64,000 nt of DNA, from NCBI GenBank assembly GCA_041484665.1, contig JBGPIA010000003.1, positions 250,414 to 314,413 of the forward strand. Direction: 5' to 3'. Positions 48,186 to 57,100 of the stretch are shown here, piece after piece (positions within the stretch are counted from its first letter, which is position 1; every line of letters begins with the position of its first letter). The position numbers were made by a program. This stretch comes from Candidatus Krumholzibacteriia bacterium (lineage in GTDB: Bacteria; Krumholzibacteriota; Krumholzibacteriia; JAJRXK01).

Positions 48186-51100
48186 CGGCGGCAAGTTCGT
48201 GGCACCCCAGCCCATCGAAAACGAGCTGCGGACGACGCGCTATATCAGCGAGGTCACCGTGGTGGGCGACGGCCGCAAGTACGTGGTGGCGCTGATCGTG
48301 CCCAATTTCGAGAATCTCAGACAGTACGCGGGGCGCCATCAGCTCGCTGTGGACGATCTGCCGGCGCTGCTGCGCCACGGACAGGTGCTGGGGCTCTACG
48401 GCCATCTGGTGGACAAGGTCAACGCGCGCCTGCCGGGCTTCGAGCAGGTCAAGAAGTTCCGGCTGCTGGACCACGAGTTCAGCGCCGAGCGTGGCGAGCT
48501 GACGCCCAGCTTGAAGGTCCGGCGCCGCGTGATCGCGCAACGCTACCACGACGAGATCGAGGCGCTCTACGCCGAAGGCACCGGCGGTGCCGCGCCGTGA
48601 GCGCCACGCTTGGCGGCGCGCTGGCCTGTTTCTTCGTGTCCGATTTGCACGGCAGCGCGCATCGCTACGAGGCTCTGTTCCAGACGATCGCGCTGGAGCG
48701 CCCGGCGGCGGTGTTCCTCGGCGGCGACCTGCTGCCCCACGCGCTGGATCGGTCGCAGGCGAGCCCGGCGGCCGACGGCGGACCCCAGCAGGGCTTCGTC
48801 GCCTCAGTCCTGCTGGGCGGCTTCGCGCGGCTGCGCCACGCGCTTGCCGGCCGCTACCCCCGCGTCTTCGTCATCCCGGGCAACGACGATGCGCGCTGCG
48901 ACGAGCCCGTGTTCCTCGAAGGGCAGCGCCGGAACTTGTGGGAGTACGCGCACCAGCGACGGGCGCAGCTGGGGCCGCACGCCGTGTTCGGATACGGCTG
49001 CGTGCCCCCTACTCCGTTTCAGCTCAAGGACTGGGAGCGCTACGACGTGTCGCGCTACGTACCGCCGGGCTGCGTCTCCCCGGAGGAGGGGTGGCACACG
49101 GTGGAGGTGGAGGAGCACGAGTTGCGCACAGCGACGATCCGTGAGGACCTCGAGCGGCTGGTGGGGTGCGAGGACCTGGGCTCGGCCATCCTGCTCATCC
49201 ACACTCCACCCTACGAGACCTGCCTGGACCGCGCAGCGCTCGATGGCCAGAGTGTGGACCACGTGCCCTTGGACCTGCACGTGGGCAGCATCGCGGTGCT
49301 CCGCTTGATCCAGGAGCGCCAACCCCTGCTCACGCTCCACGGCCACGTGCACGAGTCGGCACGCCTCACCGGCGCTTGGAGGCAGCGCATCGGCCCCACC
49401 TGGTGCCTCGGCGCCGCCCACGACAGCCCGCAGTTGGCGCTGGTACGCTTCGACCCCGCCGACCCCGGAGGCGCTACGCGCGCACTGCTGTAAGCCCCCA
49501 CGCCACGCGCGCACTGCCGCAGGCCGCTACGCCCCGCGTTCTGCGGTGGGTCAGCGCGCTGGCGGTGCCAGTTGCAGCGGCCGGGCCGCGTCGGTCACTG
49601 CCCCGATCTTCACGGCGTAGCTGTTGCCGGCGGCGATGTCGGCATCGGTCACGAAGTGGACGTCGAGAAGCTCGTCGGTGCGGTAGCCCGTGCGCAGGTA
49701 ATTGAGCTCGCCCAGGCACTTGCTCCAGCCCAGAAGCCAGGCGCGCAGCACCTCCCGCTCCCTTGGCGGATCGGTCACATGGACGAGCAAGTCGATGTCG
49801 CTCTTGGGCGCGGCGGAGGCGTTCTTGGTGCTGCCGAACAGGTAGCAGCCCTTGATGCCGAAGCGCCCGACGTCCAGCGCGGCGGCGATCTGCTGCGCCA
49901 TGCGCAGGCGCCACCGCCAGTGATCGCTGGCGGCCGTTGGCAGGGGTTCCAGGGTCTCCGCCGCGGTAGCGGCGCCCGCTCCCGGCGGCGCCAGGAACGC
50001 CACCGCCTCGTCCAGCTCCGCATTCATGAGCACCCGCAGCACCTTGCCGTCGGTCGCCGCAGGAATGTCGACCACGTAGACCGCATGGCGCAGGTGGGCG
50101 AACTCGGGGAGGAGATCGGCGAGCAGATTCGGGGAGCGCGTGAGCAGCGGCTCGTTGAACTCGCACTGCGGGTCGTCGGGGTAGAGCGGCAGGTACCGGA
50201 TCTTCGACTCCACGAGGTCCTGGAAGAAGTGCGTACCGAACGAGACGTCGGGGACATAGTTGCCCTGCTTGCGGGCGATCTCCACCAACATGGCCGTGTT
50301 GTTGATGTCGGAGTAGGTGACGTTGACGCCGAGCCGGATGTCGCCCCGGCTTCCCCACCGTCCCGGGCCCATCAGGATGAACTGGCGTTTGGGCAGCAGC
50401 TTGTTCAGCCGACCGACCGCCCGGGCCACCGCCTGCAGCTCGCCGAGGCTCGAGAGCTCGCTGTACCCGCTGGGACTGACGTAGACGACATGGGTGACAT
50501 CGGGCATGCGCCCGTTGGACACGTAGCGGTTCGCCCGGAAAACCAGCCGATCGCGCGGGATATCCCGGGGGATGGGCGTCGGAGCGCTGGTATCGGAGTA
50601 GCTCTGCGGCCGGCACTGGAGCAGGTAGAGCTCCGTGCCGTCGCTGGCGAATTCGATGTCGACGGGCGTCTCCAGCTCGTCCTGCAGGATCTTGAGCATC
50701 GACTGCATGCGGGGAATGAACGGCGTGTCGGCAACCAACCCTTCGAAGGTCACGACCAGGTTGTTGTCCTGGCGATCGGGGCTGAACCCGATCGGCCGGT
50801 GGATCCGGTCCTGGTCGCACACCGAGACGACCTGATGCAGGCCAGGGTAGCGATCGCCCACCTCGCGCACGAGCTGCGCGAACGGGTGTGTCTCCATGGC
50901 ATTGGTGCTGCGGTTGATCACGTCGACGCTGCGGGGCGAGTAGCGCAGGACCTCGTCCGCCGTGACATTCACGCGCAGCGCCGCCTGCCCCGGAGCGATC
51001 AGCACCGGGTAGTCGTCGCCCAGGCGGTCGACGGCCCGCGTGCCCAGCCCTGGAACCAGGCGAAGCAGCCCGTCCTCTCGCCGGATGCGCGACGACCATC

Positions 51101-54100: not shown

Positions 54101-57100
54101 AAGCGGGCATCGATCGCGGGCTGGTTGTTAGGGATCATCTTGGTGGCGTAGACGCCCGCGAAGGGGTGCTCGAGGGCGTCCTCCAGCAGGCTGGAGGAGC
54201 GCAGCGCCAGCGGCGCGTGCATCCGGGCCACCAGCGCGCGCAGGTCGCCGACCAGCTCGGCGGGCAGCTCGCCCTTCTGGAACGCGTGGGCGATGCGGTC
54301 GTCGGGCTCATCCGAGAGCGCTGCGGACATCAGGCGGTTGCGCTGCAGGAACTCGTCGAAGTGGTCGGTGCCGATGACCGCCATGGTCGGCACGCGGACC
54401 TCGACATCCGACAGGCCGAAAGGGGCCAGGCGCGGGAGCAGCTCGTCCTTGATCGCCAACAGGCCGGCGGCCTTGCCGCCCAGCGCGCCCGTGCCAATGC
54501 GTGTGAACGCGAAGGGAGAATCGAGGAACCTGCGATCGAACTGCGGCAGATCCCCGCGCCCGGATGGTTGGACGGCCATCGCCGCCTCTAGACCCAGCCC
54601 CGGTCCTTGCAGGCCTGGGCGACGCGGCTGACGGCGATCACGTACGCCGCGTCGCGCATGTACAGGCCCTGTTTGCGGGCCAGCTCGCTTACGGCGATGA
54701 AGGCCGATGTCATCTTGAGGTCCAGCTTGCTCAAGACCTCGTCACGTTCCCAGAAGTAGTTCATATTGCTCTGGACCTGCTCGAAATAGCTGCAGGTCAC
54801 ACCGCCGGCATTCGCCAGCAGGTCGGGGAGCATGAAGATGCCGCGCTCCTTGATCGCCGCGTCCGCCTGCGGCGACGTGGGGCCGTTGGCCCCCTCGGCG
54901 ATCACGCGTACGCGCTTGCCGATCCGACCGGCGTTCTCGGCGGTGATCTGGTTCTCCAGCGCCGCGGGGATCAGGATCTCCACATCCTGCTCGATCCAGG
55001 CATCGCCCGGCAGCACGTCGTAGCCCATCTCGCGCGCCCGGCCCTTGTGGATCCCGCCGAATGCGTCGGTGATGGACAGGAGCGCATCGAGCTCGATCCC
55101 CGAAGGCTTGCGGAACGTGTAGGCTACCTGGTCCTGCTGATCCCAGCAGGCCACCGCAATCACCTTGCCACCGATCTGCTCGTAGAGCCGGATGGCGTAT
55201 TGGGCGACGTTACCGAAGCCCTGGACGCTGGCGCGCGTCTCCTTGGCGGCGATGCCCAGCTCCTTGAGCGCCTCGCGCAGCGTGAAGACCAGGCCGAAGC
55301 CCGTCGCCTCCTTGCGCCCCAGGGAGCCGCCGAGCCCCACCGGCTTGCCCGTGATGAAGCCGGGGAGACGGCCGCCGTGGATCGCCTCGAATTCGTCGAG
55401 CATCCACAGCATGTGCTGGGCGTTGGTCATCACGTCGGGAGCTGGGACATCGTTGACGGGACCCACATTGCGCGCGACCTGGCGGACCCACCCGCGGCAA
55501 ATCCGCTCCTGCTCGCGGTTGCTCAGATTGTGCGGGTCGCACACCACACCGCCCTTCGCTCCACCCAACGGGATGTCCACCACCGCGCACTTCCAGGTCA
55601 TCCACATGGCCAATGCCCGTACCGTGTCTGCGGTCTCCTGGGGATGAAACCGGATGCCCCCCTTGCACGGCCCGCGCGCATCGTTGTGTTGGATGCGAAA
55701 GCCCCGGAATACCTGCACGCTCCCGTCGTCCATGCGCACGGGGATGCCGAAGTGGTACTCGCGCAATGGCTCCCTCAGGAGCGCGCGCGTCGCGTCATCC
55801 AGATGCAGGCGATCCGCTACGCGGTCGAACTGGGCCTGGGCCATCTGGTAGGAGTTGTATGCTCTGTCCGCCACGGCTCGCACCTCACCGACGTCACTAC
55901 CCAACGAGCAGCGGCGAAATGCACCGGCCCAGCCGCCTCGCTTCCCCAAACAAGCATATGGAAGGCGAGAACACAAGCCGGGCCCCCCACCGCTGGAGAG
56001 GGCGTCGGCGCCGCCCGCGCCGGGGCGGCGCGGTGGTCCCTTGGCGCGCGGCCGCCCCTCGCCCGCACTGTTCGGCGCCCTTGTGTCCGGCGCGAGCCGC
56101 GGCTAGCCTGCTGGCCAGCGCCCGGGGCGAAGGCCGCACGGGCACGCACGGGAGAGAAGCCTTGACCGACAGCCCTCGGCGCCATCCCTTCCCCATCGTC
56201 CTGCCGAGCGCCGCGCAGCGCGTGATCGCACGCTTGCGCGCTGCGGGGCACGAGGCGTACGCCGTCGGCGGCGCGGTGCGCGATGCGCTGCTGGGCAAGG
56301 CCGTCGAGGAGGTGGATGTCACCACCTCGGCCGCGCCTGACCAGGTGATGGGGTTGTTCCACCACTGTTTCTCCACGGGCTACGAGTTCGGTGTCGTGGG
56401 CGTGATCGAGGGCGGGCTCACCGTGGAGGTGGCCACCTTCCGGGAGGACATGCCGTACCTCGACGGCCGTCATCCCAGCGCGGTGCGTTTCGCCGATGTG
56501 GCCACCGACGCGCGGCGCCGTGACTTCACCGTCAACGGGCTCTACTACGATCCCATGAGCCAGGAGGTCCTCGACTTCACCAGCGGGCTCGACGATCTGC
56601 GCAAAGGCCTGCTGCGCGCCATCGGCGAGCCGCGCGAGCGCTTCGAAGAGGACCGGCTGAGATTGCTGCGCTGCGCACGCTTCGCGGCCCAGCTGGGGTT
56701 CTGCATCGAGGCGCGAACATGGGAGGCCCTCGTCACGCTCGCGCCGCGCATCGACGCCGTCAGCGCCGAGCGCGTGCGCGCCGAGCTGGACAAGTTGCTC
56801 ACTGGACCGCGCCCCGGCGTGGGGATGCGCGTACTGCTGTACAGCGGACTGCTGACGGCGCTGTTGCCGGAGGTCGAGGCCATGGTTGGCGTGGAGCAGC
56901 CCCCTGAGTTCCATCCCGAAGGTGACGTGTTCGTGCACACCTGCCTGGTGCTCGAGGCGCTGCAGCGCCGAGACAGCGTCCTGGCCTGGGCGGCATTGCT
57001 GCACGACGTGGGCAAGCCACCCACGTTTCGCGTCGCCGAGCGCATCCGCTTTGACGGCCACGTGGGCGAGGGCATGCGCATGGCCGAGGCGATCCTCACC

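Follow-up and report, generated by a model that had tools for sequence, protein, structure and literature searches.

Why should a gene for glutamate dehydrogenase (GDH) be followed by genes for two proteins that carry the ATP-binding domain of a dikinase? The question is raised by a 64 000-nucleotide stretch of DNA (the window) from a Candidatus Krumholzibacteriia bacterium, in which the initial annotation read a gdh and two downstream PPDK_N proteins, here called A and B, as a covalent control system for GDH, analogous to GlnE/GlnD. GDH links carbon and nitrogen metabolism, and we know of no established dedicated covalent regulator of bacterial GDH that is comparable to GlnE. Our literature search found no paper on the A/B cassette family. 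The analysis below indicates that the cassette probably controls GDH, although not quite in the manner first proposed.

Organization of the locus

The trio proved to be three intact, co-oriented minus-strand ORFs, and the second gdh said to be followed by a receiver-bearing PPDK_N protein is present within the window as the pair GDH2 and RR-A (Table 1). The scores given for these proteins were also reproduced, namely PPDK_N at 125 and 189.3 bits, NTP_transf_2 at 24.2 and Polbeta at 23.7 in Pfam, and GDH1 at 465.8 against the NCBIfam model GdhA_Arch (cut 750). A fourth conserved cassette gene, absent from the annotated trio, encodes a metallophosphoesterase (MPE), which matches PF00149 at 29.6 bits, above the cut (Atlas 0.98), and whose metal-binding motifs DxH, GD, GN, H and HxH are complete in 65 of 66 sequences. 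In this genome the MPE gene overlaps the stop of an unrelated acyl-CoA-synthetase-like gene.

Table 1. Positions of the cassette genes, of the encoded domains and of the second gdh locus in the window.
Feature	Position	Strand	Details
GDH1 gene	54588..55874	(-)	428 aa; GTG start, GAGGTG 6 nt upstream
Protein A gene	52822..54579	(-)	585 aa; begins 8 nt past gdh stop
A C-terminal domain, residues 411-585	52825..53349	(-)	His518 (codon 53026-53028) at helix start
Protein B gene	49551..52733	(-)	1060 aa; begins 88 nt past A
B GAF-fold input domain, residues 10-142	52308..52706	(-)	Reduced sheet
B His domain, residues 725-918	49980..50561	(-)	His835 (codon 50229-50231)
B Pol-beta-type minimal nucleotidyltransferase, residues 938-1054	49572..49922	(-)	G967-S968-x10-D979-x-D981 plus D1024
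MPE gene	48597..49493	(+)	298 aa, calcineurin-like; convergent on B, 57 nt gap
GDH2 gene	16537..17883	(+)	448 aa, family-I NADP-type GdhA
RR-A gene	17972..21058	(+)	1028 aa, receiver-PPDK_N protein

GDH1 is a family-II enzyme in which the substrate and catalytic residues K71, K95, K107, D147, R187 and S362 are intact, and it shares a W244-D245 loop with the NAD-specific enzyme 2yfq. GDH2 matches PRK09414 at 770.8 bits, above the cut, with its catalytic residues likewise intact; the three active-site lysines, the catalytic aspartate and the substrate arginine and serine of an active GDH are found in both.

Domain architecture of proteins A and B

Protein A had been described as an ATP-binding domain only; it also possesses a C-terminal domain of 175 residues in which one histidine is invariant. 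The ATP-grasp part (about residues 23-402) is of the PEP-synthase (PEPS)/rifampin phosphotransferase (RPH) type, with K36, R127, T146, E376, Q395 and R397 at the nucleotide site; R127 and T146 align with R117 and T136 of RPH, as numbered in PMC4844700. The full set of Lys, Arg, Thr, Glu, Gln and Arg, together with the histidine, is found in 94 of 95 A and 85 of 92 B sequences, and the A and B models match the ATP-grasp fold of RPH (5hv1) with Z 25.6 (rmsd 3.0, 286 aligned) and Z 26.4. The PDB profile matches of A are of the RPH/PEPS type rather than PPDK, and in the fold comparison RPH, HpeI and PEPS all come ahead of PPDK. The family is large, with at least 7991 relatives of A, forming 902 clusters at 50% identity (E up to 1e-30).

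The His518 position is conserved in 120 of 120 and 148 of 150 A homologues. The predicted fold of the C-terminal domain moderately resembles two phospho-His carrier domains, 2fm4 (Z 6.7, rmsd 4.0, 118 of 128 residues) and 2e28 (Z 6.5), values that lie below the tool's caution line of 8 and equal that for an unrelated DRTGG domain. The invariant histidine opens a helix, with a strand 11 residues later, and it is by this helix-strand spacing alone that H518 is matched to the catalytic histidine. A Pfam search gave no PF00391 match in A or B, and profile comparison (hhalign) of the domain with 26 true carrier domains gave probabilities <1%. Judged by the modelled fold, the domain is probably a remodelled swivelling phospho-His carrier. 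The structure model of A is fully explained by its two domains, and no Pfam match to an acceptor-binding third domain (TIM barrel or rifampin-binding) was obtained in A or B.

Protein B, 30% identical to A across 529 columns, consists of a GAF fold, a helical domain, an ATP-grasp, a His domain and a minimal nucleotidyltransferase, in that order; the first two of these account for the N-terminal third, previously listed as unknown. The GAF-fold region has no Pfam match, yet it aligns with 3cit at Z 13.3 (rmsd 2.1, 123 aligned) and with the GAF domains of NifA (Z 11.9) and PtsP (Z 11.5), and GAF domains make up most of the 50 matches in the fold search. The His domain is homologous to the C-terminal domain of A (hhalign 99.85%), and His835 is conserved in 110 of 110 homologues. 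The catalytic residues of the nucleotidyltransferase, which the initial annotation had left to be checked, form an intact triad: G967, S968, D979 and D1024 occur in 110 of 110 B homologues, and D981 in 101, with Asn in the other nine.

RR-A comprises a pseudo-receiver, a receiver with the phospho-acceptor Asp253 (kept in 40 of 40), a DUF5752-like domain and an A-type core, which shares 45% identity with A.

Linkage to GDH across genomes

Among the best 80 of 560 genome loci with a relative of A, a GDH neighbour was found in 77 and B in 78, and all five misses were contig ends; the gdh-A-B gene order is far beyond chance. Across 151 genomes of the phylum to which this bacterium belongs, the GDH1 clade and B occurred together in 97, alone in 1 and 6, respectively, and not at all in 47, counts that overstate independence because the genomes are related. 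The A-type core itself is present in 136 of these 151 genomes and in 43 of 74 from a second phylum. The dominance of related genomes (57 of the 80 loci are from Acidobacteriota, and the 151 genomes from a single phylum) is what might be expected if the genes were simply co-inherited and functionally unconnected with GDH, but the link persists through co-oriented, divergent and convergent gene orders, in two GDH families and in many phyla, and we regard this explanation as scarcely credible. A separate subclade of family-I GDHs is likewise accompanied by A-B, and the link therefore follows GDH function rather than a single lineage.

The association extends to receiver-bearing A proteins: of 70 listed cases, 60 have a GDH within 3.5 kb, which belongs to family II in 23 and to family I in 37. 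Of 31 such loci in the second phylum, 27 contain a GDH (on both sides in 10), and most loci there have RR-A immediately after a family-I gdh. Baggio and Morrison (1996, cited in PMC4539542) reportedly described one or more trans-acting genes downstream of gdhA in Bacteroides thetaiotaomicron that affect GDH activity; the gene at that place may be an RR-A homologue.

The link is not universal. Some family-I GDHs (in genomes G019 and G011) have no module in the fetched flank, a divergent A branch adjoins an FMN oxidoreductase and DUF5020 without GDH in three of three loci, and two sensor-less B types have no GDH nearby; the last two cases imply that the module can serve other partners.

The inputs vary. 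MASE1-PAS, GAF and receiver domains are interchangeable across module variants, and where B lacks the GAF domain A carries receivers (seven of seven fetched loci). No biosynthetic or catabolic downstream genes are conserved in the 80 loci. Because of the near-perfect co-occurrence, the involvement of both GDH families, the interchangeable inputs and the lack of biosynthetic neighbours, the functional tie to GDH and the regulatory role in the original proposal are well supported.

The same observations bear on the idea that A and B are a split small-molecule dikinase, as in HpeHI. The acceptor-binding domain that they lack would then be provided by GDH, and the phospho-His would phosphorylate a metabolite bound there: 2-oxoglutarate in its enol form, glutamate, or NAD(H) at the 2'-OH. 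The nearest solved folds, RPH, HpeI and PEP synthase, all phosphorylate small molecules (PMC12167813), the divergent A branch pairs with another oxidoreductase, and the substrate pocket is kept in the pseudo-GDHs described below. However, exchangeable inputs are typical of regulators, downstream metabolic genes are not conserved, and the GDH active site, deep within its cleft, is hard to reach for a 175-residue carrier domain, which makes this reading distinctly unlikely.

The nucleotidyltransferase and the phosphoesterase

The other element of the original proposal, the analogy with GlnE/GlnD, is only partly right. The nucleotidyltransferase is missing in one B type, and what stays constant is the ATP-grasp with the His domain. 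GlnE and GlnD resemble the cassette in having a Pol-beta-type nucleotidyltransferase beside a nitrogen enzyme and a candidate reversing activity, whereas B has a single, dispensable, minimal domain of 120 residues, and no GlnE, GlnD, HD or ACT domain was matched in the cassette by Pfam or NCBIfam. The motif GSX10DXD with a third Asp is also that of MntA, from the HEPN/MNT type VII toxin-antitoxin system, which adenylylates a protein tyrosine (PMC7641770), and there is a weak fold match to 7ae9. Unlike MntA, the B transferase is fused to a dikinase-like core and scores 20.9 bits against the MntA model (cut 60); no HEPN toxin was found among the conserved neighbours in the 80 loci.

The transferase is held by 81 of 82 genomes with MPE; where MPE is absent, the transferase has diverged further (median 43% vs 61%), and its triad is altered in 7 of 16 genomes. 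MPE and GAF-bearing B occur together in 75 cases and alone in 7 and 3, respectively, and MPE is a candidate eraser for the cassette. This co-evolution and the intact MntA-like motif would suit a strict GlnE/GlnD-like cascade with nucleotidylation of GDH as the main on/off switch. We nevertheless consider such a cascade very unlikely: a 774-aa B type without the transferase adjoins GDH (11 fetched loci), RR-A/GDH pairs also lack it, it decays in sensor-less B, and a stand-alone transferase adjoins MPE in two genomes that have neither B nor the GDH1 clade.

GDH as target or sensor

In 14 related loci the cassette GDH has lost its catalytic lysine, with two separate origins, while A, the transferase and MPE remain intact beside it. 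K71, K95, R187 and S362 are kept in 10 of these pseudo-GDHs, a further one differs only at S362, and 13 of the 14 genomes have another, apparently intact GDH. Because GDHs without the catalytic lysine are repeatedly retained, the data suggest a further role for GDH as a sensing or docking subunit, beyond being a switched target, and in some lineages the pseudo-GDH may serve as the sensing subunit. A precedent is the catalytically inactive GdhA subunit of Thermus thermophilus, kept as a regulatory subunit in the GdhA/GdhB/APRTh system (bioRxiv 2025.10.31.685773); control there is allosteric (leucine, AMP), whereas in the cassette the pseudo-GDH goes with enzymes that use ATP, and the GDH of the window is intact.

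Taken further, GDH might be the sensor and not the target, its ligand-bound form signalling to A/B the state of glutamate, 2-oxoglutarate or NAD(H), with the phosphate or nucleotide output directed elsewhere: an RR-A-like receiver, the other GDH or a nucleotide signal degraded by MPE. This would fit the pseudo-GDHs, the invariant phospho-acceptor of RR-A, a super-cluster of RR-A, pseudo-GDH, A, B, MPE and family-I GDH in four genomes, and the tracking of GAF-bearing B by MPE. Against it, the majority of cassette GDHs, that of the window included, have an intact catalytic site, the 80 loci share no conserved transcription factor or other gene for an output, and many genomes with RR-A have no B; we hold it to be unlikely. 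Neighbouring ORFs of at least 100 aa in these loci likewise included no PII-like cluster.

Proposed mechanism

We give about even chances to a scheme in which GDH is joined by a signal-gated phospho-His module that governs its activity, and a nucleotidyl writer/eraser pair forms a dispensable extra layer. Going by residues and fold, A and B would each phosphorylate their own carrier histidine (H518 and H835) from ATP, releasing AMP and Pi. They would act as a pair, as A+B fusions (9 of 120 B matches) and gene order suggest, with the input on either partner, GAF on B or receivers on A. Since both lack the acceptor-binding third domain of dikinases, the acceptor would be a partner in trans, probably GDH because it is the only constant neighbour; the module would dock on it and set its activity through phosphate transfer or phosphorylation-dependent binding, as proposed for VadK. 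Judging from co-evolution, the transferase would add, and MPE remove, a nucleotidyl group on GDH or A/B as a second layer. GDH subunits may double as a ligand-sensing or docking surface, which would explain the keeping of catalytically impaired copies. The likely purpose would be to stop NAD-type glutamate-degrading and NADP-type ammonium-assimilating GDHs from opposing each other. A bolder version, in which a protein dikinase moves the ATP beta-phosphate to GDH, the transferase and MPE write and remove a second mark, and metabolites are sensed by GDH or pseudo-GDH subunits, across many phyla, is tentative, and we lean against it; on this version the trans-acting locus of Bacteroides would possibly be a system of the same kind.

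The closest precedent is VadK (Rv1127c), a histidine kinase derived from PPDK but without its barrel (PMC13400623). It combines an ATP-grasp with a His carrier, as A/B probably do, likewise lacks the pyruvate/PEP barrel and regulates a central enzyme of metabolism by protein contact; the main text of that paper never mentions glutamate dehydrogenase. VadK has a recognizable carrier domain, whereas A/B have a PEP-synthase/RPH-type ATP-grasp and a probable carrier invisible to profiles, and differ further in their pairing, GAF/receiver inputs, nucleotidyltransferase, phosphoesterase partner and GDH association. The RPH/PEPS-type profile matches and the lower fold rank of PPDK point to a possibly separate origin of A/B. 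Rifampin phosphotransferase, PEP synthase and HpeHI (5hv1, 2ols, 9goj) share the ATP-grasp fold, the ATP-site residues and the probable His carrier, but A/B lack their acceptor-binding domain, with no separate such subunit nearby, possess sensor domains and score 15-61 bits against NCBIfam models (cuts 500-1350).

The cassette is an unstudied system of many bacteria, for which the analysis supplies mutable residues (H518, H835, D979/D981/D1024 and the MPE metal site), while the candidate eraser and the natural pseudo-GDH variants help to separate the target, sensor and small-molecule readings. If the bolder version is true, the cassette would be the post-translational switch hitherto missing between GDHs that assimilate ammonium and GDHs that degrade glutamate. 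A dikinase directed at proteins would add a new route by which proteins are phosphorylated.

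Gene content of the window

The initial annotation had placed a glutamate dehydrogenase (GDH) gene before two ATP-grasp protein genes. This trio was borne out as three intact minus-strand open reading frames, encoding GDH1 (a family-II GDH), A (an ATP-grasp protein with a His domain) and B (a relative of A with a minimal Pol-beta-type nucleotidyltransferase domain, hereafter the transferase), and the Pfam and NCBIfam scores were reproduced on re-scanning. A second pair, GDH2 and the receiver-bearing A-type protein RR-A, lies 32 kb away within the window, and a whole-genome search found A, B and RR-A as the only members of the protein family in the source genome. 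Promoter and terminator scans gave signals at chance level.

Genes of the window (blank cells, no entry; 'presumed', our assumption)
Feature	Position	Strand	Description
GDH1	54588-55874	minus	428 aa; 8 nt between GDH1 and A
A	52822-54579	minus	585 aa
B	49551-52733	minus	1060 aa; 88 nt between A and B
MPE	48597-49493	plus	calcineurin-like metallophosphoesterase, faces B
AMP-binding gene	46525-48600		acyl-CoA-synthetase-like
GDH2	16537-17883		family-I NADP-type GdhA
RR-A	17972-21058		receiver-bearing A-type, pairs with GDH2
Neighbour	55613-57520		enzyme of the poly(A)-polymerase/CCA type, transcribed away from gdh; ordinary neighbour by Pfam scan
Neighbour	41072-44476		fused acyl-CoA mutase (presumed)
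Neighbour	44663-45829		MutY (presumed)
Neighbour	60011-61778		dTDP-sugar genes (presumed)
Neighbour	62907-63755		thymidine kinase (presumed)

Linkage of A and B to GDH

Of 560 genome loci containing a relative of A, the best 80 included 77 with a GDH sharing 70-79% identity with GDH1 and 78 with B; all five absences fall at contig ends. Acidobacteriota supplied 57 of these 80 records, the others coming from Zixibacteria, Planctomycetota, Eisenbacteria, Calditrichota, Ignavibacteria, Gemmatimonadales, Bradymonadales and a Cytophagia record, among others. As a test independent of A, 151 genomes of the window's phylum were searched with each protein separately. The GDH matches split into a clade of at least 64% identity (the GDH1 clade) and a remainder of at most 52%. 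Both this clade and B were present in 97 genomes, the clade alone in 1, B alone in 6 and neither in 47, and because related genomes are not independent, we place no weight on any P value for these counts. A B-type gene lay within 6 kb of 103 of the 121 GDH1-clade genes, many of the remaining genes being on short contigs.

Among the matches listed, 60 of 70 cases of RR-A have a GDH no more than 3.5 kb away (23 family II and 37 family I), a count that leaves aside 48 weaker matches. The names of ten receiver-type representatives included no cultured organism. In a second phylum, that of G152, a genome recorded as Cytophagia, the A-type core occurred in 43 of 74 genomes; in the 40 loci fetched for its 57 A-type matches, a GDH was present at 27 of 31 RR-A loci, on both sides at 10, and the full gene cassette at four. 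A distinct family-I GDH subclade, seen in a quick tree, is preceded by A-B in four genomes. The linkage of A and B follows GDH function.

Two groups of loci count against a link to GDH only. At L222-L224, the genes for a divergent A branch (30-32% identity, His motif kept), DUF5020 and an FMN-dependent NADH oxidoreductase make up a conserved set of three, and the flanks fetched for these three loci contain no GDH; and two sensor-less B proteins adjoin trp genes with no GDH nearby (L225-L226). That A and B should have no functional link to GDH at all seems to us very improbable.

Protein A

The predicted structure of A (pLDDT 93.8, pTM 0.93) contains an ATP-grasp domain at residues 23-402, with rifampin phosphotransferase (RPH) as the nearest fold (Z 25.6, rmsd 3.0, 286 aligned) and HpeI and PEP synthase also matched. 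Lys36, Glu376, Gln395 and Arg397 of A presumably correspond, by motif, to dikinase residues. RPH Arg117 and Thr136, reported as required for phosphotransfer (PMC4844700), align with Arg127 and Thr146.

The fold of residues 411-585 resembled that of 2fm4, the phosphoryl-carrier domain of PPDK (Z 6.7, rmsd 4.0, 118/128), and that of the pyruvate kinase tail in 2e28, which is carrier-like (Z 6.5); both scores are under the tool's caution line, and a DRTGG domain ties with these carrier folds (Z 6.6). All 120 close homologues and 148 of 150 diverse ones have His518; it opens a helix and is followed 11 residues on by a strand, an arrangement shared by 26 true carrier domains. When profiles of the C-terminal domains were compared with these 26, the outcome was negative both locally and globally, and an Atlas search with residues 405-585 gave no usable match. 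We read the domain as a probable, strongly remodelled phospho-His carrier.

No acceptor-binding domain was found in A, and the system does not fall among the PEPS/PPDK/RPH enzymes. Another reading, in which the proteins form a small-molecule dikinase split across genes, an arrangement exemplified by HpeHI (PMC12167813), we think rather doubtful.

Protein B and its variants

B (predicted structure, pLDDT 84.7) has a GAF fold at residues 10-142 (Z 13.3, rmsd 2.1, 123 aligned), after which come a helical domain, a core sharing 30% identity with A, and the transferase. In 110 homologues His835 is kept throughout, as are Gly967, Ser968, Asp979 and Asp1024 of the transferase, while position 981 holds Asp in 101 of them and Asn in the other 9. 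The transferase motif is GSX10DXD, as in MntA, which is described as using it to adenylylate a protein tyrosine (PMC7641770).

Fusions of A and B (1629-1648 aa) made up 9 of 120 B matches. Seven fetched loci have a B without GAF and receivers on A instead (order RR-A, gdh, B); the second receiver of RR-A keeps its phospho-acceptor Asp in 40 of 40, and the first lacks it. In 11 loci (L088-L098) the B facing gdh is a 774-aa form that lacks both GAF and transferase, and one B has MASE1-PAS-PAS-SpoIIE in place of GAF. What stays constant, then, is the ATP-grasp and His core, whereas one input can replace another.

Other forms were also seen. The 774-aa type has its own N-terminus and is usually convergent on a separate GDH1-like clade; the two B proteins next to trp genes (L225-L226) are copies of this type. 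At L111:4665-8852 (genome G078) a 1395-aa fusion combines MASE1, two PAS domains, part of SpoIIE, a partial B core and the transferase, and is followed by a GDH without the catalytic Lys (a pseudo-GDH) and MPE; because the remaining A-B is 2.4 Mb distant, the locus may reflect a rearrangement or a misassembly. L013:2439-3398, which precedes an intact cassette on its upstream side, encodes 319 aa in which GAF joins the transferase directly, without the ATP-grasp core. One B of 1202 aa has a duplicated GAF domain (P0153), and a LysR-type N-terminus joined to the transferase (P0472, a short match on a 2-kb contig) may be a chimera. Fragments of B made up most of the 120 best short matches to the transferase, and GAF was present in none.

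The metallophosphoesterase and the transferase

Clustering of neighbouring open reading frames in the 80 loci gave one more conserved family, MPE, present in 52 of the 68 loci whose sequence extends 1.2 kb or more past B. Its metal motifs are complete in 65 of 66; by sequence it had no relative in the PDB, the best match (E 0.008) being unrelated. Because its start overlaps the stop of the AMP-binding gene, MPE in the window is probably transcribed together with this unrelated gene, which is not conserved across the 80 loci.

In the 151 genomes, MPE and GAF-bearing B occurred together in 75, alone in 7 and 3, respectively, and neither in 66. The transferase was present in 81 of 82 MPE genomes, two of which lack B and have a stand-alone transferase nearby. 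In the 16 genomes with the transferase and no MPE, the domain is more diverged (median 43% versus 61%); its triad is altered in seven and intact in nine, seven of these nine being one genus with a shortened domain. The pattern is consistent with a dispensable writer/eraser pair. The stand-alone transferases (L299:1337-1897 and L300:5501-5911; G018 and G126) lie near MPE in genomes that gave no match to B or to the GDH1 clade, and the same small conserved open reading frame precedes both.

The system falls outside both GlnE/GlnD and the HEPN/MNT pairs. A GlnE-like switch, in which the transferase would act on GDH, we regard as improbable.

Pseudo-GDHs and cofactor preference

Scoring of six active-site positions covered two sets of GDHs, of 157 and 60, with one GDH counted twice. 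In fourteen there is no equivalent of Lys107, which by spacing (Lys, then Asp 40 residues on) corresponds to Lys102 of Arabidopsis GDH1, described as priming water in catalysis (PMC7326016); A or B adjoins all 14. The other three substrate-binding residues are kept in 10, one differs at Ser only, and three have decayed further. From these residues we infer that the pseudo-GDHs have lost activity. Another GDH, scored intact, is present in 13 of the 14 genomes, and the remaining one, G078, has a second GDH. Because the ten copies of family II group in a single clade (FastTree support 98) and the other four are family I, the sequences indicate two origins; three or more were rejected on the same single clade.

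A, the transferase and MPE are intact at the pseudo-GDH loci scored, except that Arg708 of B is changed in three family-I cases. At these loci (L110, L112, L117) Cys replaces this conserved ATP-site residue, and the GDHs have an extra Asp two residues before the catalytic Asp. RR-A, pseudo-GDH, A, B, MPE and a family-I GDH form one cluster in four genomes. An inactive GDH subunit with a regulatory role is described for Thermus GdhA (bioRxiv 2025.10.31.685773). Retained substrate-binding residues would suit a GDH that serves as the sensor, with the output elsewhere, a reading we consider unlikely but tenable.

In the window, the active-site residues of GDH1 are intact. GDH1 is probably NAD-preferring, because it has a Trp-Asp loop in common with the NAD-specific enzyme 2yfq, the Trp of which we take to be tied to this preference. 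Sequence rules for GDH cofactor preference often fail (PMC3157743).

Proposed role of the system

The GDH of B. fragilis is reportedly inactivated reversibly, but our literature search turned up no source for this. A 1996 title cited in PMC4539542 makes GDH activity in B. thetaiotaomicron dependent on trans-acting gene(s) located downstream of gdhA. Searches aimed at the A/B family gave no description of it, as judged from titles and the starts of abstracts; subscription papers or supplements could hold fitness or proteomic data. The nearest precedent is VadK (Rv1127c), a PPDK derivative without the barrel, which is reported to autophosphorylate His422 and proposed to modulate methylcitrate synthase through binding (PMC13400623). 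The A/B system would work most like VadK.

The analysis documents how the genes are linked, together with their folds, conserved residues, fusions, modular inputs and patterns of co-evolution. We give about an even chance to the proposal that a phospho-His module, acting by transfer or through binding that depends on its state, controls the GDH oligomer. The His of A/B would be autophosphorylated, the module would dock on GDH and affect it, and the transferase and MPE may add a nucleotidyl layer. A, B and GDH constitute a real, widespread and uncharacterised GDH-linked system.
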